Of a stretch of 64,000 nucleotides of DNA, positions 10,068 through 23,816 are shown one piece after another. The translations under genes were made by a program, and so were the position numbers. Source of the stretch: a virus; the IMG/VR virus record IMGVR_UViG_3300037010_002844, positions 64,001 through 128,000 of that record. The stretch is one strand, 5' to 3'. A model generated the notes under the pieces. The model saw only the letters and a program-made list of their open reading frames with translations, was not told the origin of the DNA and did not search any database. The first letter of the stretch is position 1. Each line of letters opens with the position of its first letter.

Positions 10068-11198
10068 TTACGTGATTTCCCTCAACTTCCAGACCGTCGT
10101 CGACGCGCCAAAGTCGTCCCTCTTGACCTCGGCACAACACAGGATGAAGGGGTCAGGAAGCTCCTTGCCGCCCCAGACAGAAATCTTCGTGGCCTTGCCA
10201 GTGGGTCCAACCGCAAAGATTTGCACATATTCCTTGCCATTGCGGGTCTTCTTCTTGATGCCCGTCACCGGCTTGCCACCCTTCTTTGCAGCAACAGGGG
10301 CCGTGACAAACCAGACGACCGCCGTGTCACCGTGCTCCAGGTCGTCAATGCTATTGACGCCCTTCTTCTCCAAGGCAGCCAAGATTTCGATGTCAATCAT
10401 GGCGGTGACGTCCAAAGCACCGAAGACGTCGACCATATTTTGAGCACGTTCAGAAGACGACCAGTCCTCGATGTCAGCGTAGTCCCTGACCAACTGGTAG
10501 AAGTTCTTAAGGCCCTCGTGCGGGTCAGACTTCGGGTGTCGCTTGATCAACGCCCCGTGATCGATGTCGACCTCTTCGGTGACCTCGACGCCCTTGCGCT
10601 TCTTGGTCACGGTCTCCACGTGAGAACCGAAGAGGACCTCGTGCATGTGATGATAGTTGTTGAAGACCTTGCCTTCGCCCACGATGTCCATACTGCCGAA
10701 GGCACCGATCTTGACCAGGGCCTCCATCGCCTTCTTGTTGAACTTGCTGTGTTTCCACTCGAAGTTGTCATCCCACAGCAACTCCTCGATAGTGTTGTAG
10801 GGACGGTTGGCCATGATCTCTTCGACCGCCGAGTCGCCGACACCCTTGCAGGACGTCATCGACGGCATCAACTTCTTGCCGGGCAGCGCGGTCCACCCGA
10901 GCCCCGCCAGGTTGATGTCGATCGGGACGATCTGATAGCCCAAGGCCTTTACCTCGCTGAACGCCTTAGCACGTTGAGCAGGAGTGTGCGACATGCTTTC
11001 GAGATAGGCACACAGCCATTCCTCCTCGTGATATGTCATCAGCCAGGCGCACCAGAAGCTGTCAATGGCGTATGCCACTGCATGGCTGTTAGACGTCAGT
11101 ATCCCGTTAGCGAGATAGAACTGGTGATCCGGGTGATCGACTTCGAGGTCATAGGTCTGGTGTCGACCCACGGGTGTGATAGACTTGATGTTACTCAT
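10068..11198 (-). CDS. dnaE: DnaE (Pol III alpha) piece H: split-intein C-half (IntC, 11088..11198) plus C-terminal extein
   Basis: Starts MSNIKSITPVGRHQTYDLEVDHPDHQFYLANGILTSN (Hint blocks F/G) then SHAVAYAIDSFWCAWLMTYHEEEW. This matches the DnaE motif [28 protein letters not shown], continuing into the C-terminal OB region. Confidence 0.85.
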   Translation of the reverse strand: MSNIKSITPVGRHQTYDLEVDHPDHQFYLANGILTSNSHAVAYAIDSFWCAWLMTYHEEEWLCAYLESMSHTPAQRAKAFSEVKALGYQIVPIDINLAGLGWTALPGKKLMPSMTSCKGVGDSAVEEIMANRPYNTIEELLWDDNFEWKHSKFNKKAMEALVKIGAFGSMDIVGEGKVFNNYHHMHEVLFGSHVETVTKKRKGVEVTEEVDIDHGALIKRHPKSDPHEGLKNFYQLVRDYADIEDWSSSERAQNMVDVFGALDVTAMIDIEILAALEKKGVNSIDDLEHGDTAVVWFVTAPVAAKKGGKPVTGIKKKTRNGKEYVQIFAVGPTGKATKISVWGGKELPDPFILCCAEVKRDDFGASTTVWKLREIT

Positions 11199-11419
11199 GT
11201 GAGCAGGTCCTTCAACAGGTCTTCGATCGCTCCTGCGTTCGGTTCATCAAGCATTGCTTTAGCATACTCTTCTTCAATGTACTCGTCAGTCGGCTGGAGT
11301 TCAACCTTCGTTTCGCTTTTGCGTCGGTAACGTGCCGCGGCCCGTAACAGTTCGATCGGACTCAGACCCATGCGTTGGGCAATGTCATTCAGTGCGATTT
11401 CAAACGGCGGTCTTTTCAT
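11195..11419 (-). CDS. small hypothetical protein (74 aa) between HE4 and the IntC of piece H
   Basis: ORF MKRPPFEIALNDIAQRMGLSPIELLRAAARYRRK...; possibly a helix-turn-helix fragment. Confidence 0.35.
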   Translation of the reverse strand: MKRPPFEIALNDIAQRMGLSPIELLRAAARYRRKSETKVELQPTDEYIEEEYAKAMLDEPNAGAIEDLLKDLLT

Positions 11420-12449
11420 ACGCTTTTCCTATCCGATGAACGCCAGGTCGAGGATCTTTCAGGATCTCAAAAAGCTTTTTCAAGCAATCAGGTTCGAAGC
11501 GACCGCCATCCTTGTATGAGAACTGATCGTAAGAAATTCGAATGAGTGTCCAATCATGTTTAGTGATGTAATCATCAAGCATTGCATCCATGCACTTCAC
11601 TCGTTCAAAATTATCCTCGCCTTTAATACGTGCATTAAAATGGATGATTCCATCAAATTCAACATAAATGTGTCTTGATCGATCGGCAATGTCAACTTGC
11701 TTTCTTTTAGATTTGTTTGGAAAAGCAACTGACTTGACGACCTGATTATGAACAAAATCATAACCTTCAACGTTTTTCAACAAATCAAACAACGCTAATT
11801 CCGGAATGCTATGCCAAATAGCATGTGCAGCTTTTGTGCACTTTTCGTAGAACTCATCGGGGTTCAACTCACGCCAACGGGCCAGGCGCTCAGCACGTGC
11901 CTTGAGTATCTCAGGCCGGGTTGACGTTAGTCTTGCAACGTCTGATGAACGTTTACGGGCTTCAGGTCGTCGATTAAGTTCTCCCATTAGTTCAGAGCGA
12001 CGTTTCCTCTCGCCCGGATTGCTCGTGATGGCCTCACTGACCGCACGGCCCATCTTTTCCTTGTAGGCAGTCAAATCATCACCGCGTGCCTTCGCTCGTT
12101 TGAGCCAGGCGAAATTCTGCCCACGATGCTTGAAACGCGCTGTCGAGACTTTCGATGTGATTGCGGCAGTCGGGTACGCTTTCAGGTATTCTTCTTTGCT
12201 CATACCATGCGTCCCCGACAAGTGCTTTGCCAGTGCCTTACCCGTGAAGCCACAGACTTGGCATGTGACACTCTCACTGTCACCGAGTATGAATCCTTGG
12301 CACCTAGCTTGGTGTTTTTCGTAGGCCTTCAGGTAGACGAAGAGCCTGCTACATCGGTCACAACGATGCTGAGGCCCCGTTCGGCAATCATCCACAGGGG
12401 CAACATCTCGTTTGTCTCCTTCGTCCTGAACTTGTGATCCCACGTGCAC
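11400..12449 (-). CDS. free-standing homing endonuclease HE4, Vsr-like (EDxHD-type) nuclease core
   Basis: C-terminal core RSRHIYVEFDGIIHFN...WTLIRISYDQ (the Vsr-like 'vEfDG..H' motif). The N-terminal Cys/His-rich region has CDRCSRLF and CQVCGF. The annotated start overlaps the IntN of piece G in another frame, so the real start is probably internal. Confidence 0.75.
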   Translation of the reverse strand: MHVGSQVQDEGDKRDVAPVDDCRTGPQHRCDRCSRLFVYLKAYEKHQARCQGFILGDSESVTCQVCGFTGKALAKHLSGTHGMSKEEYLKAYPTAAITSKVSTARFKHRGQNFAWLKRAKARGDDLTAYKEKMGRAVSEAITSNPGERKRRSELMGELNRRPEARKRSSDVARLTSTRPEILKARAERLARWRELNPDEFYEKCTKAAHAIWHSIPELALFDLLKNVEGYDFVHNQVVKSVAFPNKSKRKQVDIADRSRHIYVEFDGIIHFNARIKGEDNFERVKCMDAMLDDYITKHDWTLIRISYDQFSYKDGGRFEPDCLKKLFEILKDPRPGVHRIGKAYEKTAV

Positions 12450-13030
12450 TTTACCTTCTCTCCGGTCACCAACTCCACTTCTACCAAGTCTAGCTCACCG
12501 TGGTCGTGTTTTGCAACAACAGGGACGAGGATGTTTTTACCTGAATTCTCATCACGAGACATGACCAGGTCGCCGGGTTCGATGTGTTGAAGCTGCTTTG
12601 TCTCTTTGAACGTGCCGTCTGAAAAAAAGGTATTTACTGGTTCCGAAAAGTACAAACTTTTATTGAAGCCGTAGCCCGCGAAGTACAGAATCTTGTCGTA
12701 GAGGTTGTTGGCCACCTTCTCGGTATAACCGTTGGCGATGCAACCCTTGACGAACCCGTCACGGGTCTCTTGGGCTGCCTTCTTTGCCGCCTCACCGCCC
12801 GAGATGCTGCGCTTCATGATTGCGCGACGGACCTCGTCACACTTGTCCTTCGGGAAGCCGGCAGCCTTCTCGGCGAGTTCCATCACCTGTTCCTGAAAAA
12901 TTATGCAGTTATGCACGAGAAGGCCATTTGCGAAGAAGTTGTTGTTCTTCTTGACCTGGATGTCGTACACAGGCTGTGCAGGAACACGCTTGATCGCACG
13001 GATCTTGACGGGAACTACGTCAGGCATCAC
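12329..13030 (-). CDS. dnaE: DnaE piece G: IntC (12908..13030) + 83-aa extein (12659..12907) + IntN (12332..12658)
   Basis: IntC ...PVYDIQVKKNNNFFANGLLVHN, then CIIFQEQVMELAEKAAGF...VRRAIMKR...YFAGYGFNK (DnaE: IILYQEQVMQIAQ...LRRAMGKKK...KFAGYGFNK), then IntN SLYFSEPVNTF...TWDHKFRT (blocks A/B). Confidence 0.85.
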   Translation of the reverse strand: MMPDVVPVKIRAIKRVPAQPVYDIQVKKNNNFFANGLLVHNCIIFQEQVMELAEKAAGFPKDKCDEVRRAIMKRSISGGEAAKKAAQETRDGFVKGCIANGYTEKVANNLYDKILYFAGYGFNKSLYFSEPVNTFFSDGTFKETKQLQHIEPGDLVMSRDENSGKNILVPVVAKHDHGELDLVEVELVTGEKVKCTWDHKFRTKETNEMLPLWMIAERGLSIVVTDVAGSSST

Positions 13031-13344
13031 TTACGCTCCGTTTCACGATGAGTCTGACAAACAATGTGTAATGACATTGAGCGCGACAAAGCATCACTGC
13101 CTAGAACGACTCGGCAAGGGTTGAGATTTTCCCCCACATGACGCATCCATTCTTGCAAAGCGTTGATCAATCGTTGGGCTTCGTTGAAACCCTCATGCGA
13201 GGGTGGAAACTGACAGCAACCTACCAAATCTCTAGTCCCAGGATCATATGCAATGATTCGCAAATTCCCATGAACGTTCATCTCTAGCGTTAGAGATCCA
13301 TAAACATCGTCATCGATCTCGCTAGTGTAAAGATCTGCGCTCAT
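13027..13344 (-). CDS. small hypothetical ORF (105 aa) in the F|G inter-fragment spacer
   Basis: Track ORF; no motif. Confidence 0.3.
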   Translation of the reverse strand: MSADLYTSEIDDDVYGSLTLEMNVHGNLRIIAYDPGTRDLVGCCQFPPSHEGFNEAQRLINALQEWMRHVGENLNPCRVVLGSDALSRSMSLHIVCQTHRETERK

Positions 13345-13345
13345 A

Positions 13346-13591
13346 TCATTTTTCTTTCATGTTCAATGATGATGCGCAGAGTTGGCACACTGGTCCATCA
13401 ACACTCAAAACACGTTGACCATGGTATTCGAGCTCCATATCATTTCCGACCTCTTCATAAGCTCGAAATGTGTCGAACCAGTCGGCATACGTGAGATCAT
13501 CACGCTTTCCAAATGCCGTATGTGACTTCATCGTGTTGATAAAGTTCTTGAACGACGTAAGCAACTCCTCTTCAAAATCATCAATCTTCAT
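13346..13591 (-). CDS. small hypothetical ORF (81 aa) in the F|G inter-fragment spacer
   Basis: Track ORF; no motif. Confidence 0.3.
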   Translation of the reverse strand: MKIDDFEEELLTSFKNFINTMKSHTAFGKRDDLTYADWFDTFRAYEEVGNDMELEYHGQRVLSVDGPVCQLCASSLNMKEK

Positions 13592-13662
13592 GTCTAAATT
13601 GTCCTCAATTTGAGGTGATAGTTCAAGGCATCAGACTCCCAGACGCGGTACACCGTGAAGCC

Positions 13663-13830
13663 TCAAGTTCTTGTGGCAAGCGTCCATAATTGATCAAGCC
13701 TAAATTGCTTCTTCATCGCAGGTGTTAGTTCATGCTTCGCTGGGTTACTGTGCCAATAGTCGCCGTCGTACTCGATGATGAGGTTGAGTGATGGCACGAC
13801 GAAGTAGCCTGGTTTCAGTACTTCATTCCC
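13663..13830 (-). pseudogene. truncated Vsr-like homing-endonuclease remnant (nuclease-core fragment only, no start codon)
   Basis: Third-frame translation NEVLKPGYFVVPSLNLIIEYDGDYWHSNPAKHELTPAMKKQFRLDQLWTLATRT* contains the 'IEYDGxYWHS' Vsr-like motif. It overlaps the 3' end of piece F and has no upstream Met. Confidence 0.5.
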
Positions 13831-14414
13831 AAAATCTCGTCTTCAGACGTCAGTTCACCTGCTTGCACCCAACCACGAGGCGTCATGACAAGGTGATCTT
13901 CAGTCAAAGACAAAGTTTCTCCACCCTCCAGCTCAACCTCGATGATGTCACGTACGCCGTTTGAGGCGACAGCGACAACTTCGTCCATCTCGACGGTCTT
14001 CGTCATTTCATTGTATGACGGAAGCTTAGTTCCCACCATTCCTTGTTCAACGATTTGTCTAATGGGAACCTCACCTTGCTCAGTAAGGATATGTGTGTCA
14101 CCCGTCAAACACGAGTATGTCTTCTTCAGGATGTCGTTGACGCGGTGATCGCCCCACTCCAACTCCTTGCCGTCATTCTTCGCCTCCAAGTACAGTCGAT
14201 CGACTTTGGCGGCCAAGGGACCCGGGCGATAGATGCTGGTCAGCGTCGCGATGTCGATGATGCTCTTGGGCTTGCCTTTGACAAAGAGTCGCTGAGCGCC
14301 CTGGCCCGTGCAATTGTGAACAACGACGTCGTTAGCGACGAAATTATGATGATTTCGCACCTCGATGTCGTAGACGTGGCGCTTACCCACGCTGCGTGAT
14401 GACACAAGCTTCAA
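13815..14414 (-). CDS. dnaE: DnaE piece F: IntC (14313..14414) + 67-aa extein (14112..14312) + IntN (13818..14111)
   Basis: IntC MKLVSSRSVGKRHVYDIEVRNHHNFVANDVVVHN; extein CTGQGAQRLF...IATLTSIYRPGPLAA...ILKKTYS (DnaE 'ALFRPGP' and '..TYG' motifs); IntN CLTGDTHILTEQG...SLTEDHLVMT. Confidence 0.85.
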   Translation of the reverse strand: MKLVSSRSVGKRHVYDIEVRNHHNFVANDVVVHNCTGQGAQRLFVKGKPKSIIDIATLTSIYRPGPLAAKVDRLYLEAKNDGKELEWGDHRVNDILKKTYSCLTGDTHILTEQGEVPIRQIVEQGMVGTKLPSYNEMTKTVEMDEVVAVASNGVRDIIEVELEGGETLSLTEDHLVMTPRGWVQAGELTSEDEILGMKY

Positions 14415-15171
14415 GCGTCGTCTCCTTCTTTTCTAGCAACTGTAGGTCATATCCACTGACAAGTGCACACTTGAGCGTCGGATGCAACGTTACGAATGCG
14501 TCAAACTTCTCCCTAGCATCATCACGCCACCAGCCCTTGACTTCCACGTACACCCGCTTAAAGAGCTCCAACGTCGGTCATTGACGATGGAAGATCATGT
14601 ACGCCTCTCTTGTGAGCTGGATCCTGATCTCCTCCTCGCTGAAGCCCTCGTCCATGCAATGACGCCAGTTGTCATACAGGTCGACGACGCCATTCTTTCC
14701 GTTCCCGTTGCCCGCTGAGTGCAGAAAGTACAAAGGGGCGCTACGATGAGCGGAGCGCGTCCGTACAATCACATGTTGCGGAGTCGTGGGCCTGTTGCGT
14801 CTCTGTAAGGCGACATGGCCACGGTCGCGGCGAAACCTGCGACCAAAACGCCCGCCTCACGTCAATCCACGAGCTTCGTAACCACTGCTAGACCCAATCA
14901 ACTCGTCGTCTTCGGTTAGGTGCTGTGCCTCAACCCACCCGCGATTCTTCGTCAAGATGGGATGATCAGCGGTGCAGACAAGCTTCTTGCCGTCGTCGAA
15001 CACGAGCTCGATGCACTCCTTGGGTCCTTGGTCGTAAACGACGTCGACGACTGATGTGGTGAACTGCTGCTTGACTTCATCGAAGACCGTCACCTCGTCA
15101 CCGACATGGACGTCCTTGATCAACTTGTACGAGTCATCGCCCATCAGCACTGCCGTGTCCTGGTCGACGCA
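14313..15171 (-). mobile_element. split-intein site 5 (E|F): IntN 14860..15171, decayed mini-nuclease gene 14383..14772, IntC 14313..14414
   Basis: As above; the intervening nuclease gene carries an in-frame stop. Confidence 0.7.
14383..14772 (-). pseudogene. mini PD-(D/E)XK nuclease gene (paralog of 23817..24137 and of the HE1 C-terminus) interrupted by one in-frame TGA at 14578..14580
   Basis: Track ORFs 14578..14772 and 14383..14571 are in the same frame, separated by a single TGA. The joined product ...YMIFHRQ*PTLELFKRVYVEVKGWWRDDAREKF aligns with the paralog ...HQIFVHDESVYYEIKGRWSDKACY, which has no stop at that position. Confidence 0.5.
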
Positions 15172-15333
15172 CTGGAAGATGCCTGCCCACTTGCCTTTCT
15201 CGTAGACCTCGTAAGGTTTGGGATCGGTGAAATCAATGACGGCCGGGTGCATGTGCTGCTCGAACCAGGTCTTGATGTCATTGAATGATACCGCATTTGT
15301 ATGTGCGTCAACGTTAGCAACGACTTTTGCCAT
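14857..15333 (-). CDS. dnaE: DnaE piece E: 54-aa extein (15172..15333) + IntN (14860..15171)
   Basis: Extein ...VIDFTDPKPYEVYEKGKWAGIFQ (DnaE 'IPLDD...TAVFQ'); IntN CVDQDTAVLMGDD...CTADHPILTKNRGWVEAQHLTEDDELIG. The first 13 aa, MAKVVANVDAHTN, resemble a vestigial block G. Confidence 0.8.
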   Translation of the reverse strand: MAKVVANVDAHTNAVSFNDIKTWFEQHMHPAVIDFTDPKPYEVYEKGKWAGIFQCVDQDTAVLMGDDSYKLIKDVHVGDEVTVFDEVKQQFTTSVVDVVYDQGPKECIELVFDDGKKLVCTADHPILTKNRGWVEAQHLTEDDELIGSSSGYEARGLT

Positions 15334-17116
15334 GTCTTTGTAAAGGTACTTTCACAGGTCCATAACGTACACCGCGTTGGAGCAACCAAAGATCTTAAAA
15401 AGCCTGTGTTCCATCGCCATCTCTTCTTGTGATGCGATCCCCGGAATCGCCCTGACAGCAAATCTATCGATACGATTTTGTCCGTCCGTCCACCAAAACC
15501 TAGGCTGCGTCATGTGATCAAATCTAAAACCAGATAGTTCATACGCCCGGCCAGTGCCACCCAACCTCATGTCACGGTATGTGATCATTTTTTGGTAACC
15601 ATGCTCACGTGACCAATCCCTGGCAGCGTTGATCAACCGCGACATGCCTCCAACGACGATGGTATCGCGGGCCGTTGAAACCCGCGCCAATTCAATTGTC
15701 TTAGATCCCCACTTAGTCTGCTGGTGCGGTTTTCGCAATGTCAATGCACAAATAATGTTTCCAGCAATGTCCTCTAGCCAGAACGAATGCGACGAAGGAG
15801 TGTTTCCATCGAGGTGATTGTTCGCCATGAACTGAGCGGTGATGGCTGGACGACCGCTGCGAAGATGTAGCTTTCGTGCCATCACGCGAGTAGCAAGACC
15901 AAGCTTTACCCTGATCATGCTTTTGATGATGTTTTTCTTTACATCATGGTGCCATTCATCGTCGAAGATATGTAGCAACGACACACCACGCTCAAGAGCG
16001 CGAGTCGACTTGTCTTGGTGATACGATGGTGGAGTACCGGTCGCCTCACTGTGCCAATAGACACCGTTGCACTCGATGGCAATCCTTCCGTTACCTGACA
16101 CGATGTCCAGCTCATAAGGCGCGATTGACTGTCTGTCGTTGGCGATGGCGTTCGAATCGAGCTTGACGAAGAAATCGAACACCTCACGATGCCAGCGAGA
16201 GAAATTAGCCGGGTAGCACGTTGAACACACCTTTCCCTTGTAAAGGACGTTAAAGGGAACAATATCAGGTACGTTACAACTGACGCATGTCACATGCACC
16301 GGTGTTGAGTATCCAGCAAACTCAAATTTTTCGATGTTCCACCTCGACCGCAGTGCATCAACTCGCCGTTCGACCTCTTCGAGAGACAACCGAAAAGGAG
16401 AGTTAGTGCCGTTCTCGATAAGGCGTTTTCTAGTCTCGATGATCGAACGTTTGATATCTTCAGAATTAGCGTTCCGAGACCAATGATTCAAGCGAACGCC
16501 TTCGCCGATCCGTTCTGATCGCCGTTTGATCCTATCGTCAGTTTCTGACGTCTGACCGTGCTGCGTCCAGTGTTTTTCTACTTGCCATTTTTCAGTCAAT
16601 GCTCGAGAGATGTTATGCGCAGCTCTTGTGATAGATTCATTATTTTCTTTAGTTTGTCCTGTTCTCCAGTGCCCGTGTTTTTTGATGAAATCACGACAAC
16701 CTTGTGCGGCCCTTCGAACCGATTCAGACGTTGTTTCTGACAGCCCCTTGTTCCATGCAGGCAATGATTTTGATTTCCGGCTAAGCGCACCTCTTACTTG
16801 AGAGTTCTTCTTGCTACAAACTCCACAGAGACGTTCATATCCCGTTTGAAAGGTCATGAACTTGACCGGCCCTGAACACTGAACGCACGGTCCAGGGTGC
16901 TCTCGAAAAAGAAGGTACGCAGCCTCCGCATTGAGCCCGTGCTTTTTAAGGAGATGTGCGCGGAGCGAATTTAGGCTAGCTTTTCGCAATGGATCATTGC
17001 ACTGTGGGCACCTCGAAGGACACGATGTCATCGCCGGGCCCGAGCTCCCTCGCAAGGATGGTGCCCCTGTTGCTGGTGACGATTCGTTGGTCGCCGTAGA
17101 CGCCTCGTGTCGTTCC
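15295..17116 (-). mobile_element. split site 4 (D|E): HE3 insertion with no intact intein; Hint-N-like tail on D and a vestigial block-G-like head (MAKVVANVDAHTN) on E
   Basis: The D tail GTTRGVYGDQRIVTSNRGTILARELGPGDDIVSF lacks Cys1 and block B; the E head ends ..HTN|A, with no nucleophile. Confidence 0.45.
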
Positions 17117-17151
17117 ATCGTCGAGTTGGATCTCAAACCACCCTCTTTCAT
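15352..17151 (-). CDS. free-standing homing endonuclease HE3: Zn-finger + NUMOD3 repeats + Vsr-like nuclease + conserved C-terminal domain
   Basis: C2H2-like CPQCNDPLRKASLNSLRAHLLKKH. NUMOD3-like repeats (...SETDDRIKRRSERIGE...). Nuclease core GRIAIECNGVYWHSE. The C-terminal ~200 aa (ARKLHL...HLDGN...VVGGMSRL...RFWWTD...DRF) is shared with HE2. The annotated N-terminus overlaps piece D, so the real start is likely internal (~17118). Confidence 0.8.
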   Translation of the reverse strand: MKEGGLRSNSTMERHEASTATNESSPATGAPSLRGSSGPAMTSCPSRCPQCNDPLRKASLNSLRAHLLKKHGLNAEAAYLLFREHPGPCVQCSGPVKFMTFQTGYERLCGVCSKKNSQVRGALSRKSKSLPAWNKGLSETTSESVRRAAQGCRDFIKKHGHWRTGQTKENNESITRAAHNISRALTEKWQVEKHWTQHGQTSETDDRIKRRSERIGEGVRLNHWSRNANSEDIKRSIIETRKRLIENGTNSPFRLSLEEVERRVDALRSRWNIEKFEFAGYSTPVHVTCVSCNVPDIVPFNVLYKGKVCSTCYPANFSRWHREVFDFFVKLDSNAIANDRQSIAPYELDIVSGNGRIAIECNGVYWHSEATGTPPSYHQDKSTRALERGVSLLHIFDDEWHHDVKKNIIKSMIRVKLGLATRVMARKLHLRSGRPAITAQFMANNHLDGNTPSSHSFWLEDIAGNIICALTLRKPHQQTKWGSKTIELARVSTARDTIVVGGMSRLINAARDWSREHGYQKMITYRDMRLGGTGRAYELSGFRFDHMTQPRFWWTDGQNRIDRFAVRAIPGIASQEEMAMEHRLFKIFGCSNAVYVMDL

Positions 17152-17851
17152 GTCGTTCCTTTTTGATGATGAGCTCGATGGCGCGCTCGATGAGCCGCAT
17201 CGTTTCTAGACCTAGGAGGTCGTACTTGATGAACTCTCCGATCTTCTCAAGGTGTTTATAATTTACGCCCTCGACCCAAGGTGACTGTGGCTCGCGGACG
17301 CCGGCCTTGCCTTTGGACGTCACCAAAGGCATCTTGTTGGGCAAATCGTCTGCAATCAGCACACCACCCGCGTGACGACCGAGACTACGATTCTGCTTGA
17401 AGAGGATCTTGATCGACTCGGCGACGACCGGGTACTTCTCAATGAAGCCGCGAAACGACGGGCTGACCGGCTGCTTACACTCTGGGCTACAGCCCTGGCA
17501 GATGGACTTCGACTCCGGGCCCTTAGGAGCCCTGCAGTGGAAGGCCATGGCCTCATCGTAGGTCAAGACGAACAGATTCTTGTCGTCGCCTTCCTTCATC
17601 GTCGCCTTACGGACCTCGTCCTCGACGGTCCGCGTGGCAGCGTTGGTCTCCTCGAATGGGATGCCGTAGAACTTGCCGATATCCTTTACAAGCGTTTTTA
17701 GTTTGAAACAGTTATAATTGCTGATGGGAACGACGTTTTCCCACCCAAAAAAGTTTCGAAGTTCATCAAGAACCTCATCTCGCCTGGCAAGATCGGTGTT
17801 GTGAACAACGACGCTCTTGTTGGACGCCAAAAATGAATGAACGACCATCAC
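16994..17851 (-). CDS. dnaE: DnaE piece D: 18-aa IntC-like head (17798..17851) + core extein; the ~40-aa C-terminal tail is non-DnaE-like (Hint-N-like, no Cys1)
   Basis: MMVVHSFLASNKSVVVHN|TDLARRDEVLDELRNFFGWENVVPISNYNCFKLKTLVKDIGKFYGIPFEE (DnaE: RRDEVIDYV..YG.D.VAQI.TFGTM.AKAAIRDVGRVLG.PY) ... GRHAGGVLIADD...YDLLGLETMRLIERAIELI (DnaE: KHAGGVVI...FDFLGLRTLTII). Confidence 0.85.
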   Translation of the reverse strand: MMVVHSFLASNKSVVVHNTDLARRDEVLDELRNFFGWENVVPISNYNCFKLKTLVKDIGKFYGIPFEETNAATRTVEDEVRKATMKEGDDKNLFVLTYDEAMAFHCRAPKGPESKSICQGCSPECKQPVSPSFRGFIEKYPVVAESIKILFKQNRSLGRHAGGVLIADDLPNKMPLVTSKGKAGVREPQSPWVEGVNYKHLEKIGEFIKYDLLGLETMRLIERAIELIIKKERHERGWFEIQLDDGTTRGVYGDQRIVTSNRGTILARELGPGDDIVSFEVPTVQ

Positions 17852-20436
17852 ATGAATCCTAACTCAACTACAGTTGAATTTACATGCGCTCGTTGTGGTC
17901 GAAACCACGAAACGCTACGAGCATTGAAGATCCACGAGGCACGACACAGGCGAGAAGACGCCAGGCCTCCCAAACAGGTGTCAACTTACGCGTGTCCGTG
18001 GTGTGAGGCGTCATATGACAGCGGGCGTAAGTTGACATTGCACTGCACAAAAACGCACCAAAAATCACCCGTCGTTGTGTATGAAACAAGGTACCCAGGG
18101 TGCAGGAAGACGTGCATCGATTGTTGCGACTGGGTCAGGTTCATCGATCAAGAAAAAGGATACCCCGAACGGTGTCCACGTTGTAGCCGAAAACACGCAT
18201 ACGCGTCCAAGGGCACCTCGTCATGGAACAAAGGCCTGACGAAAGACAATGACGAACGCATGTCAGCCAGTGCTGCAAACATGCGAGCTCACTACAAGGA
18301 ACACGGTCACCACAACTCCGACAAGACAAAGGAAAACAACGAAAGCCTTAAACAAAAGGCGGCAAAAATCAGCGACAGCCTGCGGAGGTATTATGCAACG
18401 CACAGCGGCTGGTCACTTGGCCTGACAAAGGATACGTCTAGCATCATTGAATCTCGCAGTAAGAAGATCAGCGCTTCGTTGAAAGGACGATTCTTTAGCG
18501 ACGTAACGCTTGAAAAAATGCGCAAGGCAAAGTTGCTGACGCACGACGAGGTACAAAAACGCCTCAAAGAAAAGCAGCTTAAACTCATTGACGAATATGT
18601 CGATACTGTCACCAAAGCGCGCATCGAATGCACGATATGTTCAACAATATTTGAGCGTTGCGTTGGCGCAGTGTTCAACAACGAGGCCAAGTGTCCCACC
18701 TGCTTTCCGCCTTGGTCAGACAAAACGAGCAGGTGGCAACAGGACGTCTACGCATTTATCCAGACGCTGGCACCTGACGCAGTCCTTAGCGATCGTAAGA
18801 CGCTCGGCGGAATGGAGCTCGACATACTCATTCCATCGCGCATGTTTGCCATCGAGTGCAATGGCCTATACTGGCACAGCGAGGCCGCCAATAGATTTGA
18901 GCACGATCACGCGGAAAAGAAGAGATTGCTGTCCCTCAAAGCCGGCGTATCGCTTTTCACGTTATTTGAGGATGAGTGGCGCGACAAACGACCGATAATC
19001 GAAAGCATGTTGCGCCATCGCCTTGGGTTTTCTACCAAAGTCGATGCGCGTAAGTTGAAAGCAGAACGCTGCGAGCCCGAAGAAGTTCGAGAATTCATCA
19101 ATCAGTGCCACCTCGACGGTCACGTGAGGGCCCAATTTGCCGTGCGATTGGTAACCTCATCGGGCGAAATCGTAGGCGCCTGCAGCCTTAGGTGGGCACG
19201 AAATGGGGCAGACAGAACGACGATTGAGATCGCTCGCCTGTGCTTCAAGCTTGGCACACATGTACGAGGCGGGGTGTCAAAATTGCTATCAAAGGCAAAA
19301 GCTATAGCAAGAGAAAACAATGCAGCGAGGTTGATGTCTTACTCAGACAATCGCTTGGGAGGAAACGGTTATGCCACCTCAGGCATGAAGTTCAACGGTA
19401 CCACAGTCGCTCGCTTCTGGTGGACTGACTTCATGCATCGTTACGACAGGTTCAAGTACCGAGCCAACAAGAAGCAAGGTCTAACAGAAAAACAGGTAGC
19501 GGAGGCTGCCGGCGTTTATCGCATCTATGGCTGTAGCAACTCTCGCTACGTCTTAGACGTCACAGCGTGACGCTAATGTCATCGTCAAACTTTGAGGACG
19601 CATTTTCTTTGAGCCAGAAGATGGCGTCAATTGTGCGCTCGTCGGCGTCGGCGTCATCGCACGACGTAGCCCCATAGTATGGGGGCCAAATCGTGCTCAA
19701 ACCCTTTAACGCGCAGTTTGACCTGACAATCTTGAAATTCAGGATTTTCTGCAGCTCTCGTCTGAGCTATTCTTTCCAGGCCAGACACTATCACATCATC
19801 TGCTCGGCAGAATCGCCGTTGTCTGTAAGCTGCACCGCATCAACGTTGCTCGGACACGGTCCCAACTCCAGCTCAAATTTCATAGTTGCGCTCGCTGTGG
19901 TCTGTTCTTCTCTTAGACGCGCACCAATCGCTGCAAAAATTGTCTCCTTCGCCACACGCAAGGAACGTGCCAGGAATGACGCCCATGCAATAACCGACGT
20001 CATGTGATGGATCACCTCCACTTAGAATGGACGTATTGAACGGTACCACGTGGAATCTGTGATCGTCTTCAACAGTCAGGTCGACGTATCTAGCGTTGGA
20101 AGAGCCCCAACCACCGTGCTCGATCGATACGACCTCAACGCTGCCGCATGATGCCATCAATTCATCTCCGACCTTAAGGTCGCGGCAGTACACGATGACG
20201 CCGTCAGCTCTGACAAATTTGTGACCGGGCACCACCAAAATGTGGCCCAACGTACCATCATTGGCCCTAACTCTGACCCAGACAGCGTCCTCGAATGGCC
20301 GCAAATTTCTAGCATAGGTCGCAGTTACTGCGTGTGGCATTCCATCGCCTCCCAGGACGACGTCGCCGACAATGATGTCAACAGCTCGCTTATGAGTGCC
20401 GTCTGTCATGACGACAAGATGGTCCTCGTGGACGCA
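17798..20436 (-). mobile_element. split-intein site 3 (C|D): long IntN with blocks A/B/F (19876..20436), HE2 on the opposite strand (17837..19570), 18-aa IntC carrying block G only (17798..17851)
   Basis: The IntN tail ...YVDLTVEDDHRFHV plus the IntC head SFLASNKSVVVHN|T together reconstruct a contiguous F-G block (compare HNFVANDVVVHN of piece F). Confidence 0.55.
17837..19570 (+). CDS. free-standing homing endonuclease HE2 (opposite strand to dnaE): Zn-finger + NUMOD3 repeats + Vsr-like nuclease + conserved C-terminal domain
   Basis: CARCGRNHETLRALKIHEARH; NUMOD3 repeats (WNKGLTKDNDERMSASAANMRAHYKEHGHHNSDKTKENNESLKQKAAKISDSL...); nuclease core RMFAIECNGLYWHSE; C-terminal domain homologous to that of HE3 (ARKLKA...HLDGH...VRGGVSKL...RFWWTD...DRF). 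Confidence 0.8.
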   Translation: MNDHHMNPNSTTVEFTCARCGRNHETLRALKIHEARHRREDARPPKQVSTYACPWCEASYDSGRKLTLHCTKTHQKSPVVVYETRYPGCRKTCIDCCDWVRFIDQEKGYPERCPRCSRKHAYASKGTSSWNKGLTKDNDERMSASAANMRAHYKEHGHHNSDKTKENNESLKQKAAKISDSLRRYYATHSGWSLGLTKDTSSIIESRSKKISASLKGRFFSDVTLEKMRKAKLLTHDEVQKRLKEKQLKLIDEYVDTVTKARIECTICSTIFERCVGAVFNNEAKCPTCFPPWSDKTSRWQQDVYAFIQTLAPDAVLSDRKTLGGMELDILIPSRMFAIECNGLYWHSEAANRFEHDHAEKKRLLSLKAGVSLFTLFEDEWRDKRPIIESMLRHRLGFSTKVDARKLKAERCEPEEVREFINQCHLDGHVRAQFAVRLVTSSGEIVGACSLRWARNGADRTTIEIARLCFKLGTHVRGGVSKLLSKAKAIARENNAARLMSYSDNRLGGNGYATSGMKFNGTTVARFWWTDFMHRYDRFKYRANKKQGLTEKQVAEAAGVYRIYGCSNSRYVLDVTA

Positions 20437-20610
20437 GTCGATATCAGGAGCACCAGAGTTATGTGTCAGCACCCAATCGCTATCGTTGTTGGACACCCAA
20501 AACGTATGCTGGCCTTCGACCTCGATGTCGATGAGTTCTACACTTTCATCGACAACCTCGATAGCTTCAATTTTGGCCGTGCTTGCTGATGAGATGTTGG
20601 GTTCCTGCAT
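19873..20610 (-). CDS. dnaE: DnaE piece C: IntC (20458..20610) + 7-aa extein SGAPDID (20437..20457) + long IntN carrying blocks A, B and F (19876..20436)
   Basis: IntC ...ELIDIEVEGQHTFWVSNNDSDWVLTHN; extein SGAPDID (DnaE 'SMPDIDIDF'); then CVHEDHLVVMTDG...GDVVL (block A), TLGHILVVPGHKF (B), ARYVDLTVEDDHRFHV (F-like), then a ~55-aa tail. Confidence 0.75.
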   Translation of the reverse strand: MQEPNISSASTAKIEAIEVVDESVELIDIEVEGQHTFWVSNNDSDWVLTHNSGAPDIDCVHEDHLVVMTDGTHKRAVDIIVGDVVLGGDGMPHAVTATYARNLRPFEDAVWVRVRANDGTLGHILVVPGHKFVRADGVIVYCRDLKVGDELMASCGSVEVVSIEHGGWGSSNARYVDLTVEDDHRFHVVPFNTSILSGGDPSHDVGYCMGVIPGTFLACGEGDNFCSDWCASKRRTDHSERNYEI

Positions 20611-21788
20611 AGTCCCTGTGCTCTAGATTGGCAATCGTATGGTACAAACCTTGTCGACGAAGTTCACCATAGAAGTCATTCATGTACACGACGTCGATGC
20701 GCTGACCAGACGCCACAACGACTTCCCGTGAACGTGCGTTTGAGTTAAGCAACTTTGAGAAACGCGATTTGCCTTCTCGCACACCTTTCAACTCCACGTA
20801 TCGGTCCTCATCACTGAACCAAAAGTCTGGAGTGTAACACTTCTCTTTGCCATCGATGACAACATGGAAAGACCTATGTTCATAGAATGGCATCTTACCG
20901 AGGTGCAAGCAATATCTGTAGTAGTCGGCTTCGAACGAGCTCTTGAAGTACGGGCTGTTTAGGATGTCGGAACGAAAACACGAGCGTCCGTTCACATGTG
21001 AAGCAACCATATCACGTGACTGTGCCTCGCGGGTGCACCGTTTGGAACAGAACCGCGGCACGTAGCTCTTCTTGGTGACGATCGGTTCGCTACAAACTTC
21101 GCATACCAACGTGTGGCGGTCAAACCTCGATGCAGCGAAACATTTGGGTGAACAGAACCTGCGATTGACGTTCTTCGTTGAGAAAGTGCCTAGACACTGT
21201 ACACATGTCAGTGTACGGAGCTCATTCTTTGTCAGCGCTTTCGCAGTGTACTTGTGCCTGCACGCATTCGAACATAGTTTTCTGTTGTTGTGACACTTTG
21301 GAACGTAGAACTCATCGCCGTACTCGACGCACGTCTTCACAAGCCTCGAGGGCATGGGAGCGTGTGACATCAGCTTCCTGTGAGCGACGGCACACTCATC
21401 AGTGCAGTACGGGCGATGGAGCCTACTACCAGAACCCTTGCAGTTGGGCTCATAGTTGAACTGAAACATAATACCACAGTGTTTACACTGTTTCTCAATG
21501 ATGCTCATAGTGGTACGTGTACAGCTCGTCACTCGTCGACAGCTCAGATGTATACTTCTTCACAGGTTGTCCATCAGGACCCACTGTCAACCACACATGA
21601 TTTTCAGAACACGTGAACGTAGTACCATTCACCTTCACGCGGTACGTCTTCTCATGTTTTGTGGTCATGGTGAACGTAACTTTACGGTGTGAGCCATCCT
21701 GTGAGACAACGCTGTCACCGACTTTCACGTCTCGAAGCGCGGACGACGAACCATCTGACATCAATACCTTTGTGTCTGGCGACAGACA
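20458..21788 (-). mobile_element. split-intein site 2 (B|C): IntN 21498..21788, HE1 20567..21532, IntC 20458..20610
   Basis: As above; the HE gene overlaps both intein halves in other frames. Confidence 0.75.
20567..21532 (-). CDS. free-standing homing endonuclease HE1: tandem zinc-ribbon array + C-terminal mini PD-(D/E)XK nuclease
   Basis: At least six CxxC pairs ([40 protein letters not shown]). C-terminus [37 protein letters not shown] is a D...E.K nuclease motif shared with ORFs 23817..24137 and 14383..14772. Both gene ends overlap the intein halves of pieces B and C. Confidence 0.65.
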
Positions 21789-21992
21789 CCTGTGAACGCT
21801 AAGGAATCGCGCGAAAGGCAGGTCCCAGAACAACGGGTCCAAGTCGGTGATGTATAGGACGTAGGCGACCAGAGAGCCACCGCCCGAATTGTGGACTGCA
21901 ATACCTTCCACGTTGTAAGTGTGGCTGTTTTCCACACACAGGTCTACGACCTCACCCTTATACGGTACGACAGTCTTACTTCTGAGCTTCAT
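21495..21992 (-). CDS. dnaE: DnaE piece B: IntC (21888..21992) + 33-aa extein (21789..21887) + IntN (21498..21788)
   Basis: Int[36 protein letters not shown]; extein [33 protein letters not shown] (DnaE: GSGAGSLVAYALGITDIDPL.YDLLFERFLNPER); Int[14 protein letters not shown]...CSENHVWLT. Confidence 0.85.
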
Positions 21993-22352
21993 GATATGCG
22001 TTCGCTCTCTTCATGTAAGCCTTGAGATCCCTGTCTAATAGACATTTGACGAGGATCAGGTAAACTTAGTTGAGTTTCATTCAACCTCGATTAGGTCATC
22101 ATCTTCAGTCAAGTGTTGTGCTTCAATCCACCCACGATTCTTCGTCAGAAACTTATGCTCCTTGGTGCACCTGATCTTCTTACCGTCATCAAACTCGAGT
22201 TCTAGCAGCTCCTCATCAACCTGATACCTGAAGATCTGAGTCACCATCTGATCAACACCATATGCATCCTTGATAACGTCGCCCACCTTGATGGTGCCAA
22301 TGGGAGCATGCATGCCGTCAGCCATTAGAACCCGCGTCTCAGGAACGAAACA
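21888..22352 (-). mobile_element. split-intein site 1 (A|B): IntN 22080..22352, 84-nt spacer with no HE, IntC 21888..21992
   Basis: Hint blocks A/B in IntN, F/G (..VHN|S) in IntC; the halves sit in separate ORFs with their own stop and start codons. Confidence 0.75.
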
Positions 22353-23762
22353 ACCGCGGGCTGGGCCGGTAAGGCACACATTGCGTGCCAGCTCCATGAT
22401 CTTCTGGTAGGAAATGAAGTAGTCAGAGTTTTTCATCACCTTAATGACGCCGAGTTCCTCCTTGAGGCGCGCGATATACTCTGGCTTGTCTTGAAGACCA
22501 CGCTTCACCATGCCCACCTTACAAAGCGAGATGAGGTGATTGAACGAGGTCGTGCCTTCGGGCACCAACAACCTCGTCGGAAACTTGGGCGAACGATCGG
22601 GTGGAATCTCCCCGATGACACTGTGTGCGATATCGTGAGTCCGCTCAATGGCGTCACAGACGACTTCATCGTCATACCAGTCGGTGCCTTCCTTGGAGCG
22701 CTGGTACTCATCCCACATCTGTTGGGCGTTCTTCGGATAGAGCTCACACTTCAGCTCATCCTTCGACTTCGGAATCGCGTCAGGATTGATCTCCTGGTAG
22801 TTCATCCAACCCAGGCGCTTGTAGAGCTCACGGTCCTTCCAACGATCGGGATTATAGTAGTGAGCATCGCCGGTGACGATCAGCTGCTTGTTGAGCCCAT
22901 TGCGACGAGCGAACTCCAGGATCGCGCGGTTGACGAGGTTCTGCGCCGGTAGGCGATTGAACTGCAGCTCGAGGAAGTAGTTTCCTTCGCCGACTGCATC
23001 GACCATGTGCTGGTAGGTATTGCCCACCGCGACAACGCATTTCTCGAGCAGCACAGGGTCACTGAGCAACCGTGCGTCGAGCTCGTCAAACTTGTACTGT
23101 TGGATTTCCTGGAATATGGAGTACGCCGGCATGCCGCCGATACAAGCGCTGCTGACGATGATGTCGCCGCCTTTGGCTGCCTCTTTGAGGACAGCATGGT
23201 CAATGCGCGGGAACTTGTAGAAGCCCTTCAAGAATCCCTTCGAACATGCTGCGAAGATCGCCAACAGGCCCTTCTGGTTCTTGGGCAGAATGACTAGGTG
23301 ATGCCGTCGGTTGACGGGATTGAAGTGTTTGGTCGATTTGGACTCTTCCTCGTTTTCGACAGTCAAGGCGTTGGACATCTCAATGTCCTCAGTCTCATCA
23401 TTTTCATCGATGGTGGCGATGATCTTGGTCTGCAGCTTTTCCTGCTCCTTAGCAAGCTTGGCCGCAACCCTCCTGTCTCCCTTCGCCTGCTCTGCGAGTT
23501 CGACGTCCTTCTTCCATTGCTCCAGGTCGGGATGGTAGTACGCCTCGACGCCGGGAATGTACTTGAACGACTTTCCCTTATTGGCCTTGGCCCACTCCTC
23601 GACCCACAGTTGAGCGTGGGCATAGGAGTTCATGTTCCCGTGCTCGGTGATGGCATGGCCATCGAGCCCGTTCTCCATGCACCACTTGAAGTGTTCATCG
23701 GGATAGCCCAAACCATCGAAGGGCGCATTACGAGAAGCCCGTGTGGTTGTGCAAACCGACAA
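22077..23762 (-). CDS. dnaE: DnaE piece A: PHP-domain N-terminal extein (22353..23762) + IntN (22080..22352)
   Basis: PHP motif ...GLDGHAITEHGNMNSYAHAQLW...KYIPGVEAYY; extein ends ...VCLTGPARG (DnaE 'GPGRGSAAGS'); IntN CFVPETRVLMADG...CTKEHKFLTKNRGWIEAQHLTEDDDLIEVE. Confidence 0.9.
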   Translation of the reverse strand: MSVCTTTRASRNAPFDGLGYPDEHFKWCMENGLDGHAITEHGNMNSYAHAQLWVEEWAKANKGKSFKYIPGVEAYYHPDLEQWKKDVELAEQAKGDRRVAAKLAKEQEKLQTKIIATIDENDETEDIEMSNALTVENEEESKSTKHFNPVNRRHHLVILPKNQKGLLAIFAACSKGFLKGFYKFPRIDHAVLKEAAKGGDIIVSSACIGGMPAYSIFQEIQQYKFDELDARLLSDPVLLEKCVVAVGNTYQHMVDAVGEGNYFLELQFNRLPAQNLVNRAILEFARRNGLNKQLIVTGDAHYYNPDRWKDRELYKRLGWMNYQEINPDAIPKSKDELKCELYPKNAQQMWDEYQRSKEGTDWYDDEVVCDAIERTHDIAHSVIGEIPPDRSPKFPTRLLVPEGTTSFNHLISLCKVGMVKRGLQDKPEYIARLKEELGVIKVMKNSDYFISYQKIMELARNVCLTGPARGCFVPETRVLMADGMHAPIGTIKVGDVIKDAYGVDQMVTQIFRYQVDEELLELEFDDGKKIRCTKEHKFLTKNRGWIEAQHLTEDDDLIEVE

Positions 23763-23816
23763 ATCGTCGGGGCACTCGCACCGAGCTTCCCTTGGCGTCC
23801 TCCTTTCCTTGCTGCG

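Follow-up and report, generated by a model that had tools for sequence, protein, structure and literature searches.

A phage dnaE gene in eight pieces, with six predicted trans-splicing split inteins and an intein-derived joint

Results

Eight open reading frames at the dnaE locus

The 64,000-nt window analyzed here, which comprises record positions 64,001-128,000 of the virus record IMGVR_UViG_3300037010_002844, belongs to a giant (jumbo) phage of an uncultured clade, and it carries between positions 10068 and 23762, on the minus strand, a dnaE gene that is divided over eight open reading frames (ORFs). A preliminary description of this DNA had proposed these ORFs, here called pieces A to H, and an ordered series of DnaE segments across them. 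All eight were present, and the positions of their Pfam profile matches were collinear from A to H. The pieces consist of a DnaE segment (extein) with an N-terminal intein fragment (IntN) at its end, a C-terminal intein fragment (IntC) at its start, or both.

Piece A (22077-23762) encodes the PHP domain and the start of the palm; extein sequence extends to 22353 (...GPARG), and next comes the 91-aa IntN a (22080-22352), with Cys1 and a block B that reads TKEH. Piece B (21495-21992) opens with the 35-aa IntC a (21888-21992, ...VHN), continues with the extein SGGGSLV...SVHR (21789-21887), and closes with the 97-aa IntN b (21498-21788), which again starts with Cys1. In piece C (19873-20610), the 51-aa IntC b (20458-20610) is followed by the extein SGAPDID (20437-20457) and the 187-aa IntN c (19876-20436), in which block F and a Cys-rich tail are found. 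Piece D (16994-17851) begins with the 18-aa IntC c (17798-17851, ...SVVVHN), and its 219-aa extein, which starts at Thr+1 (17141-17797) and supplies the rest of the palm, is extended by a 48-aa tail (16997-17140). Piece E (14857-15333) has a 13-aa head (15295-15333), a 41-aa extein with the start of the fingers (15172-15294, ...GIFQ), and the 104-aa IntN e (14860-15171; Cys1, TADH). Piece F (13815-14414) is made up of the 34-aa IntC e (14313-14414), a 67-aa extein from Cys+1 (14112-14312; ...IYRPGP...KKTYS), and the 98-aa IntN f (13818-14111; Cys1, TEDH), and piece G (12329-13030) of the 41-aa IntC f (12908-13030), an 83-aa extein from Cys+1 (12659-12907; CIIFQEQVM...GYGFNK), and the 109-aa IntN g (12332-12658; Ser1, TWDH). 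Finally, piece H (10068-11198) carries the 37-aa IntC g (11088-11198, ...LTSN) and a 339-aa extein from Ser+1 (10071-11087) that holds the end of the fingers, the HhH region, and the C-terminal region. Plausible Shine-Dalgarno sequences precede most pieces; that of F is a strong AAGGAG, at a distance of 8 nt from its TTG start codon.

The extein lengths from A to H are 470, 33, 7, 219, 41, 67, 83, and 339 aa, which adds up to a predicted spliced product of 1259 aa. Two of these exteins are thus as tiny as had been claimed, namely the 33 aa of B and the 7 aa of C, with boundaries mapped from the intein motifs. In Pfam searches of the separate pieces, A matched PHP and positions 2-66 of DNA_pol3_alpha, B matched positions 57-107 and D positions 110-260 of that same profile, E, F, and G matched positions 12-46, 49-114, and 113-161 of DNA_pol3_finger, respectively, and H matched HHH_6. 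Hint-family matches were found at the C-termini of A, B, C, E, F, and G, and at the N-termini of B, C, F, and G. The spliced product gave matches to PHP (7.7e-17), DNA_pol3_alpha (2.3e-44, covering 2-260 of 260 positions), DNA_pol3_finger (2.1e-32), and HHH_6 (1.6e-9). Of the four profiles named in the preliminary description, PHP, DNA_pol3_alpha, and HHH_6 were matched, with the domains in the canonical order of DnaE. The fourth, the C-terminal OB-fold (tRNA_anti), had no Pfam match in either piece H or the spliced product, and the OB-fold plus clamp/tau-binding region typical of DnaE was thus not recognized.

The concatenated exteins also matched Taq Pol III alpha (E=6.6e-81), a similarity well beyond chance. 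In this alignment the Asp residues of PDIDTD and YDLLGL are aligned, and the junctions are crossed without a break (...SVHR-SGAPDID-TDLA versus GPGRGSAAGSLVAY…PERVSMPDIDTDFS). The seven-residue extein of piece C supplies two of the three catalytic Asp residues and piece D the third, in YDLLGLE, an assignment based on established E. coli and Taq work. Alignments of the spliced product to PDB structures ended around query residue 1052-1059, and the C-terminal ∼200 aa are conserved within the phage clade only.

Fracture sites are polymorphic among related genomes

Scans of IMG/VR and JGI metagenomes yielded ∼45 related loci (L numbers below) at 47-80% amino-acid identity. Many of these relatives have an unbroken dnaE of 1211-1269 aa, and the spliced product of the window aligned to such unbroken homologs (L002, L003, and others) with 73-77% identity and with no gap at any of the six intein junctions. 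In coordinates of the spliced product (q), the seven fracture sites of the window are a (q470, GPxRG|S), b (q503, R|SGAPDID), c (q510, PDID|T), d (∼q729), e (q770, GIFQ|C), f (q837, KT.S|C), and g (q920, GFNK|S). Fractures in the relatives recur at the same positions, in different combinations. Elsewhere the number of fractures ranges from 0 to 5 (a, b, d, f, and g in L016 and L017; a, d, f, and g in L049), and the window alone combines all seven recurrent sites. One locus, L007, has a complete split intein at an eighth position within the PHP domain (site h, q207, SA|C-IGG; 10588-11974 of that locus), so that the clade has more sites in its repertoire than the window with its seven. None of the related loci had a contiguous intein at any site, as every fracture was split.

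Seven consecutive sites in a single gene had been presented as an extreme case. All seven were confirmed, and neither our analysis nor the literature that we searched yielded a natural split-intein gene in more fragments, but it is not a singleton; rather, it is the extreme of a clade-wide polymorphism. Such presence/absence polymorphism is what mobile elements produce.

Six junctions have the features of split inteins

As judged from their motifs, true split inteins are present at the six junctions a, b, c, e, f, and g, each with a complete set of Hint blocks, and protein trans-splicing is predicted for them. The earlier proposal of six split inteins of the trans-splicing type was in this way supported by the boundary mapping, the unbroken alleles, the catalytic residues, and the selection analysis presented below. 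All six sites have Cys1 (Ser1 at g), a terminal HN (SN at g), and Cys, Ser, or Thr at the +1 position, and the block B motif T/SxxH is present at the window's intein sites, in a degenerate form at c. Likewise, Cys1 or Ser1, the terminal Asn, and C/S/T at +1 were found in every intein allele of the relatives.

When the two halves of a site were fused, they aligned with inteins of solved structure. The fused halves of site a aligned with residues 6-126 of the 126 residues of gp41-1, and over the full length with NrdJ-1 (E=1e-9). Those of site e gave full-length alignments to both the Spl DnaX mini-intein (7-138) and NrdJ-1 (E=1e-15), those of site f aligned with the Spl DnaX mini-intein from end to end (2-139, E=7.5e-17), and those of site g with the Npu DnaE intein through its C-terminus (E=5e-11). 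For site b, the N-part aligned with the gp41-1 and Prp8 inteins, with blocks F and G recognizable at the motif level.

The +1 residue was informative in a different manner, since it could be compared between alleles with and without an intein. A +1 nucleophile was present in 30/30 intein-bearing junctions across the clade, the six of the window included. At site b this residue was Ser in 4/4 intein-bearing alleles versus 0/31 of those free of an intein, which have Lys, Gln, or Ala. Intein-free alleles had a nucleophile at this position in 7/25 (e), 11/23 (f), and 8/23 (g) cases. The tracking of the nucleophile with the presence of an intein lends indirect support to the predicted chemistry, for which alone the nucleophile is needed.

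At site g, we observed that the N-intein of L049 starts with Cys1 (GFNK|CFTGENEV…) versus Ser1 in the window and in L016, while its C-intein is similar. This could be an intein replacement or a nucleophile switch.

The intein at site c has a short C-fragment

The two fragments at site c are strongly unequal. The N-fragment of 130-187 aa holds blocks A, B, and F, and the C-fragment of 16-18 aa is essentially block G (…HSFLASNKSVVVHN|T). This short C-fragment was found in every allele seen, that is, in at least 11 diverged alleles (L013, L041, L044, and the homologs P0002-P0011). The seven-residue extein is also shared by diverged homologs of piece C from at least four other genomes (P0005, P0006, P0008, P0009). 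When the site-c fragments were joined at the duplicated H-x-F strand, a 139-aa sequence resulted that aligned up to the terminal VHN of BIL/Hint structures, with a weak E-value of ∼0.01, and a PT-HINT Pfam match agrees with this BIL-type alignment. We also considered whether a 'VVPFN' in the N-fragment could be a decayed intein C-terminus. This was rejected, as VVPFN varies in homologs and the short HN + Thr/Ser C-fragment is conserved.

After block F, the C-terminal ∼55 aa of piece C (19876-20040, minus strand) form a Cys-rich extension (…YC.G.IPGTF.ACGEG.N.CSD.C.SK…), which is also present in L013 and P0002-P0004 and absent from P0005-P0009. It may be a zinc-binding add-on.

Compared to known atypical split inteins (reviewed in 2025, PMC11766414), site c resembles AceL-TerL, GOS-TerL, and the S11-type splits in its strongly asymmetric split, with a short fragment that completes the Hint fold. 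In the natural atypical split inteins, however, the short fragment is the N-fragment (25-37 aa), and the C-terminal-proximal S11 splits are synthetic, whereas at site c the short C-fragment is natural.

Junction D|E retains remnants of a split intein

The preliminary description had taken the junction between D and E (site d) for an intein-less split. It indeed lacks an intact intein and cannot splice, but it is not free of intein sequence, as degenerate remnants are present on both sides of the split, at the end of D and at the start of E. The tail that closes D (48 aa; GWFEIQLDDGTTRGVYGDQRIVTSNRGTILARELGPGDDIV…) corresponds to positions 53-94 of the N-intein profile (hhalign probability 96.9%, E=1.5e-10) and, in a separate hidden Markov model search, to positions 44-94 (E=4e-6). 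The TxxH motif has degenerated to GVYGD in this tail, and the first ∼50 residues of an N-intein, Cys1 included, are missing. The idea that the tail is a degenerate block A was rejected, since the profile comparison identifies it as the C-terminal half of IntN. At the start of E, the head of 13 aa (MAKITSI.K as the consensus among relatives) is similar to the beta-strand with which C-inteins begin, at weak E-values of 0.002-0.009 for the heads of L012 and L013, and it has no Asn/nucleophile junction. Instead of Cys1 there is Trp, Ile, or Leu at site d, with Ala or another residue at +1. Without these catalytic residues we did not class D|E as a functional intein.

Ten distinct loci besides the window have a fracture at site d. 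All of these alleles have a 37-48-aa tail and an 11-18-aa head, none has the nucleophiles, and both extensions are absent from unbroken DnaE. The gene between D and E varies and can be GIY-YIG-like, Vsr-like, or HE3 (in the window, see below), while L009 has none. Relative to unbroken homologs, D|E shows a length difference of 2-3 residues and lies in a variable loop. In canonical split inteins, the regions next to the split drive the association of the fragments, in a process termed 'capture and collapse' (PMC11766414). Because the segments retained at D|E are exactly those that flank the split site, the remnants probably act as a non-covalent association module.

The best model for such a junction is the NrdA protein of Aeromonas phage Aeh1, which was split by mobE; the tails created at the insertion are needed for an active enzyme, and no splicing occurs (Crona et al. 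2010, PMC3045599). As in Aeh1, insertion of a homing endonuclease (HE) would have split the gene and left extra tails. A difference is that the tails of D and E derive from a split intein and have been kept across genomes with different HEs, or no HE, in the gap.

A predicted route to a functional DnaE and its alternatives

We consider it probable that this uncultured jumbo phage has a working dnaE, fractured many times over, whose product is matured by six trans-splicing inteins and a non-covalent joint at D|E. According to this model, HE cassettes would have invaded seven recurrent positions in dnaE, and at a, b, c, e, f, and g the cassette would sit between the halves of a Hint-fold intein. 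The eight polypeptides would be translated separately, after which each N-intein would pair with its cognate C-intein for protein trans-splicing. The predicted products are two chains, A-B-C-D (PHP and palm, ∼730 aa) and E-F-G-H (fingers, HhH, and C-terminus, ∼530 aa), which cannot be ligated to each other and would meet in a variable surface loop. There, the C-terminal ∼45 aa of IntN and the first ∼12 aa of IntC that are kept at D|E would hold the chains together as a heterodimer. The active site itself would be built by splicing, as SGAPDID would bring two Asp residues and piece D the third. The six reactions had been described as ordered. Six spliceable junctions are there, but nothing in this scheme demands an order; what is needed is orthogonality of the six pairs. 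The intact HE1-HE4 would be selfish passengers that spread the cassettes to empty alleles, with the other HEs decayed or lost, and the inteins would make the insertion harmless.

A first alternative is that the pieces assemble only non-covalently, with the intein halves as dimerization modules and with splicing unneeded, or lost at some junctions. The lineage does tolerate an unspliceable junction with intein-derived tails at D|E, and the split NrdA of Aeh1 assembles via its tails. The six other sites behave differently from D|E, in that none of their alleles departs from Cys1 or Ser1, the terminal Asn, or a nucleophile at +1. Without splicing chemistry, there would moreover be no rationale for a +1 nucleophile that at site b appears only together with the intein. 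An unspliced seven-residue extein with two catalytic Asp residues between intein halves of ∼50-190 aa would also be a poor fit to an active site. We therefore regard assembly without splicing as improbable.

The load of selfish elements on this gene is unusual, some of its HEs have decayed (lost at A|B, remnants at E|F and F|G), its N-terminus is broken by a stop codon and a frame change, and a PolA-like ORF is encoded elsewhere in the window. Taken together, these observations could suggest a dead or dying dnaE, a HE-riddled pseudogene, with the genome being replicated by the PolA-like protein or by host Pol III. Selection on the locus points the other way. The ratio of nonsynonymous to synonymous substitution rates (dN/dS) was 0.02-0.25 for intein halves wherever it could be computed, and 0.01-0.3 for exteins, at a saturated synonymous divergence (dS>1). 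By part, values were 0.05-0.20 for IntN a, 0.13-0.16 for the extein of A, 0.02-0.045 for IntC a, 0.09-0.20 for IntN f, 0.07-0.19 for piece G, and 0.04-0.07 for IntC g. Such strong purifying selection on both exteins and intein halves at saturated dS indicates that the fractures are old and maintained, and not recent wreckage. None of the eight pieces has an internal stop or frameshift, all polymerase motifs are intact, and many diverged genomes have kept these fractures. A pseudogene is thus very unlikely.

Next, the continuity of the gene could in principle be restored before translation ends, by self-splicing introns, by DNA excision, or by readthrough of stop codons, which would leave ordinary cis-splicing inteins or an unbroken protein. 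Group I introns are frequent hosts of phage HE genes, each of the seven upstream pieces has TGA as its stop codon, and A and B are in the same frame only 84 nt apart. Against this, a search of 9800-24400 with Rfam at E<=1 gave no intron or other family, for which reason the intron hypothesis was rejected. The preliminary description had placed stop and start codons between the intein halves, and in line with this we found that every gap contains multiple stops in the sense frame (2-43 in the frame of the upstream piece) and that the downstream pieces come with start codons and Shine-Dalgarno sequences of their own. Recoding of TGA, which is the commonest stop codon here (29/40), was rejected too, as with TGA read as sense a TAA or TAG follows within 3-157 codons and still closes each piece before the next. 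In addition, HE2 lies antisense, and HE ORFs overlap the ends of intein-half ORFs. Restored continuity is therefore barely credible. Lastly, a misassembly, or a chimera put together from variants in the population, to which a metagenome-derived sequence with paralogous repeats at a and e might be prone, can for all practical purposes be dismissed, as the window was matched by a 309-kb JGI contig (3300035181; 100% identity over 6.5 kb), by a contig of a second JGI sample (100% over 3.3 kb), and by the independent Logan assembly SRR11727985 (1 mismatch in 6.5 kb), with the exact piece B protein on 7 contigs from independent samples and the same junction architecture in dozens of diverged contigs.

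Homing endonucleases and other ORFs in the gaps

The gaps between the pieces hold HEs in various states, for the most part as the preliminary description had outlined. Between A and B there is no HE, only an 84-nt spacer; at the same site L012, L014, and L016 have gaps of 1.4-2.7 kb. HE1 (20567-21532, minus strand), between B and C at site b, was expected to be a zinc-ribbon protein with a PD-(D/E)XK nuclease, and it has a zinc-ribbon and a C-terminal PD-(D/E)xK-like nuclease, matches PHROG endonuclease families, and overlaps the ends of both B and C. Its orthologs at site b in L016, L018, L021, and L043 are 39-78% identical, with a dN/dS of 0.07. HE2 (17837-19570, plus strand), a 577-aa protein encoded antisense between the halves of intein c, combines a putative Vsr-like nuclease core with a Mom/GNAT-like C-terminal region and matches phrog_3339, annotated 'homing endonuclease', at E=3.5e-59. 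Antisense orthologs of HE2 occupy site c in L041 and L046. The 599-aa HE3 (15352-17151, minus strand) between D and E matches the same family (E=1e-59). HE2 and HE3 are paralogs (32% identity, BLASTP E=4e-83), and both match the Vsr-like family weakly (Pfam MTES_1575, E ∼4e-3; PDB 3r3p, E=0.8). The C-terminal ∼150 aa of these two proteins resemble a Mom-like DNA-modification/GNAT family (phrog_1384, E=1e-10) with a weak Acetyltransf_1 match, which is unusual for a homing endonuclease.

Nuclease remnants had been claimed for the next two gaps, and both were found. EFb (14383-14571, minus strand), in the E|F gap, is a 62-aa PD-(D/E)xK-type remnant (phrog_945, E=0.005), and L045 has a 64% identical ORF at the same site. 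In the F|G gap, FGa (13663-13797, minus strand) is a 44-aa remnant of a Vsr-like HE (EYDGDYWH) that matches phrog_559 and phrog_3339 and is 42% identical to residues 332-364 of HE2; in L001 a 251-aa ORF covers an FGa-like match with 79% identity. This gap also holds the 81-aa FGb (13346-13591, minus strand), which has no family match and is 84-87% identical in L008, L016, and L035, and the 105-aa ORF FGc (13027-13344, minus strand). FGb varies less among these genomes than the DnaE exteins do, and is a conserved passenger gene. HE4 (11400-12449, minus strand), between G and H at site g, is a 349-aa protein with a ROS/MucR-type zinc finger and a Vsr-like nuclease, and has orthologs at this site in L014, L016, L041, and L049 (dN/dS 0.19). 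A small conserved ORF (11195-11419) follows HE4.

By family, HE1 and EFb look PD-(D/E)xK-like, as does HEup, an ORF upstream of dnaE that is described below, and HE4 and FGa look Vsr-like. Across genomes, each site has its own HE family, with HE1 at b, antisense HE2 at c, the FGa family at f, and HE4 at g. In the window, the HEs are full-length at b, c, d, and g, decayed at e and f, and lost at a. This mix of intact, decayed, and lost genes is what a homing cycle predicts, and the full-length HEs are presumably active.

A short coding gap near the N-terminus of dnaE

The TTG at 23762, with which the mechanically called ORF of piece A starts, is not the true N-terminus, as a conserved N-terminal peptide lies upstream in another frame (23820-23731). 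Unbroken homologs begin with M(S/P)RVP.RFVGLHNHTGFSPFDGLGYPDEH, and the window has this peptide in a separate micro-ORF (23728-23820, minus strand) that starts with ATG at 23820 and reads MTQQGKEDAKGSSVRVPRRFVGLHNHTGFS up to a Ser codon (TCG, 23731-23733), directly followed by TAA (23728-23730). The window thus has 30 codons and a stop codon, and a 7-nt insertion relative to unbroken homologs places PFDGLGY… in the +1 frame.

Ten other genomes (L001, L007, L012, L019, L029, L031, L035, L038, L046, L048) have gaps of 8-16 nt at the same codon, for example at ∼9962-10010 in L001, ∼9956 in L007, and ∼5588 in L012. Most of the gap lengths are not multiples of three. The stop codon stands directly after the take-off Ser codon in 11/11 gap genomes (…HNHTGFS|stop), and in 9/11 the gap ends with a Ser codon just before CCN-TTY-GAY. 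Take-off and landing codons are identical in 3/11 (L019, with TCC TAG TGA TCC, L038, and L046) and synonymous in 6 more. L001 and L012 have no start codon after the gap. Among the gap-bearing genomes, both flanks of the gap are strongly constrained at the amino-acid level, with dN/dS values of 0.04 and 0.07. By these sequence features, the 7-16-nt gap looks like natural short-range programmed ribosomal bypassing.

Directly upstream of dnaE in the window lies HEup (23817-24137, minus strand), a truncated, 106-aa PD-(D/E)xK-like HE remnant whose TGA overlaps the ATG of dnaE (ATGA). A full-length HE1-like gene was found directly upstream in 6/10 of the other gap loci, versus 2/25 of the loci without a gap. 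These HEup homologs of 253-267 aa are located in L001 (9101-9904), L007 (9129-9890), L012 (4719-5522), L029, L031, and L048. In L007 we also observed a second copy of the 5' end of dnaE ('KRFVGLHNHTCFS*') ∼900 nt upstream, flanking the HE. The association of gap and endonuclease suggests a mobile HE-plus-gap cassette comparable to mobA/gene 60 of phage T4.

Bypassing in T4 gene 60 (bioRxiv 10.1101/2022.08.31.505936; PMC5009743) shares with the putative bypass in dnaE a gap within a replication gene, the stop directly after the take-off codon, a landing codon that matches in most of the dnaE cases, and the adjacent HE gene (mobA). The gap in gene 60 measures 50 nt instead of the 7-16 nt in dnaE, where the take-off codon and, in 9/11, the landing codon are Ser codons. 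Short 'stop-hops' were known from synthetic constructs only, and according to a 2016 recoding review natural counterparts were expected and as yet unknown (PMC5009743).

Genomic setting

Other genes in the window form the replication module of a large phage, with a ribonucleotide reductase (RNR), a DnaB-like helicase, a RecA/UvsX-like recombinase, an exonuclease, and the PolA-like ORF. The latter, a family-A DNA polymerase-like ORF of 408 aa (55232-56458, minus strand), spans just the C-terminal portion of that family's Pfam domain, and is adjoined by a 1002-aa ORF (56491-59499, minus strand) that has no family match. The 1213-aa large subunit of RNR (44405-48046, minus strand) contains a contiguous intein of ∼350 aa (residues ∼294-653); together with the split inteins of dnaE, this means that the genome has both cis-splicing and trans-splicing inteins. 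Scans for sigma-70 promoters and terminators gave results at chance level, with 12 versus 10.1 and 18 versus 13.3 expected, respectively. A megablast search of the region against deposited phages gave no match. Protein searches found relatives at <=31% identity only, some of these with a single HNH-split dnaE, and no annotated reference for the clade.

Discussion

The data presented above are consistent with the view that this phage builds its DnaE from eight separately translated polypeptides, but several points weigh against that view. Splicing is a prediction from sequence. Inteins a and e are paralogs, with IntN identical in 44/88 positions and nearly so over the last ∼32 aligned residues, and IntC identical in 14/34, which makes mis-pairing (A with F) conceivable and means that orthogonality of the six pairs cannot be assumed. 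Intein b lacks the usual complementarity of an anionic IntN and a cationic IntC, as the charges are -1 (IntN) and -10 (IntC). Site c matches known Hint structures weakly (E ∼0.01), and its N-fragment lacks the block B Thr; an AlphaFold2 model of the fused site-c intein, made without an alignment, had a pLDDT of 32 and was discarded as uninformative. At the N-terminus of the window's DnaE, the PHP strand HNHTGFS is cut off by the stop codon and the frame change, and the landing codon GCG is unlike the take-off codon. Given this mismatch, the window might instead use a +1 shift (GFS-NA-PFDG) or make an N-terminally truncated DnaE. Finally, since the same phage also encodes the PolA-like protein, DnaE is its presumed rather than proven essential replicase.

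Fractured genes have been described before, by Dassa, London, Stoddard, Schueler-Furman & Pietrokovski in 2009 (PMC2677866). These were single-site loci on short metagenomic reads, including DnaE-1, -2, and -3, of which DnaE-1 hinted at a second intein. Their loci share with ours the split intein, the free-standing and often Vsr-like HE between the halves, and the phage-like replication genes that serve as hosts, among them dnaE at integration points unlike the cyanobacterial one. What sets our locus apart is that seven sites are fractured in one gene, six of them spliceable, and that there are empty-site alleles, site-specific HE families, and selection data. It also has a spacer without HE at A|B, an antisense HE at C|D, and a degenerate junction at D|E. 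The defining feature of a fractured gene, a HE ORF between the intein halves, was found at b, c, and g with intact HEs and at e and f with remnants, and was missing from site a of the window. For actinophages, a 2025 publication described inteins that contain Vsr-like HEs in antisense orientation.

The split inteins of Ssp and Npu DnaE and of Nanoarchaeum PolB are similar in that the catalytic subunit of a replicative polymerase comes in pieces that are joined by trans-splicing. Each of those genes, however, has one split, between distant loci and without a HE, whereas here there are six in tandem and at other sites. The cultured jumbo phage MIJ3 has a single fractured PolB with a split intein and an HNH HE (PMC6892783), and thus likewise combines a jumbo phage polymerase with a split intein and HE, at one site. 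Engineered sets of orthogonal split inteins (Pinto et al. 2020, PMC7090010) resemble the present locus in bringing together several fragments and several inteins in one cytoplasm, with the difference that the six pairs found here are apparently natural. In the literature that we searched for proteins with two or more split inteins, only engineered systems turned up. Single-site fractured genes were therefore already known, and what is new is the extreme in which one natural gene unites six spliceable split inteins, a probably exapted remnant of an intein, and an atypical split with a short C-fragment.

Only tentatively do we suggest that one gene here combines three remedies for HE damage: six orthogonal trans-splicing reactions, an exapted tag derived from a former intein, and a new natural class of 7-16-nt Ser-to-Ser stop-hops associated with a mobile HE. 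We regard this broader view as possible rather than probable. If the gap is bypassed, it would provide recoding research with a short, portable bypass element that is phylogenetically replicated in 11 variants.

If spliced as predicted, this DnaE would be the first natural protein known to need many trans-splicing reactions at once, six versus one in the described natural cases. The locus would then also offer a co-evolved set of split inteins that would have to be orthogonal in one cytoplasm, for multi-fragment ligation and labelling, including a natural intein with a short C-fragment and a Ser/Ser intein without cysteine nucleophiles, both of which are sought by protein engineers. For the clade itself, the series of alleles with 0-7 fractures, in which HEs are intact, decayed, or lost and one intein has been reduced to what is probably a binding tag, makes the life cycle of fractured genes testable, and it would also allow the limits to which an active site tolerates selfish DNA to be probed.

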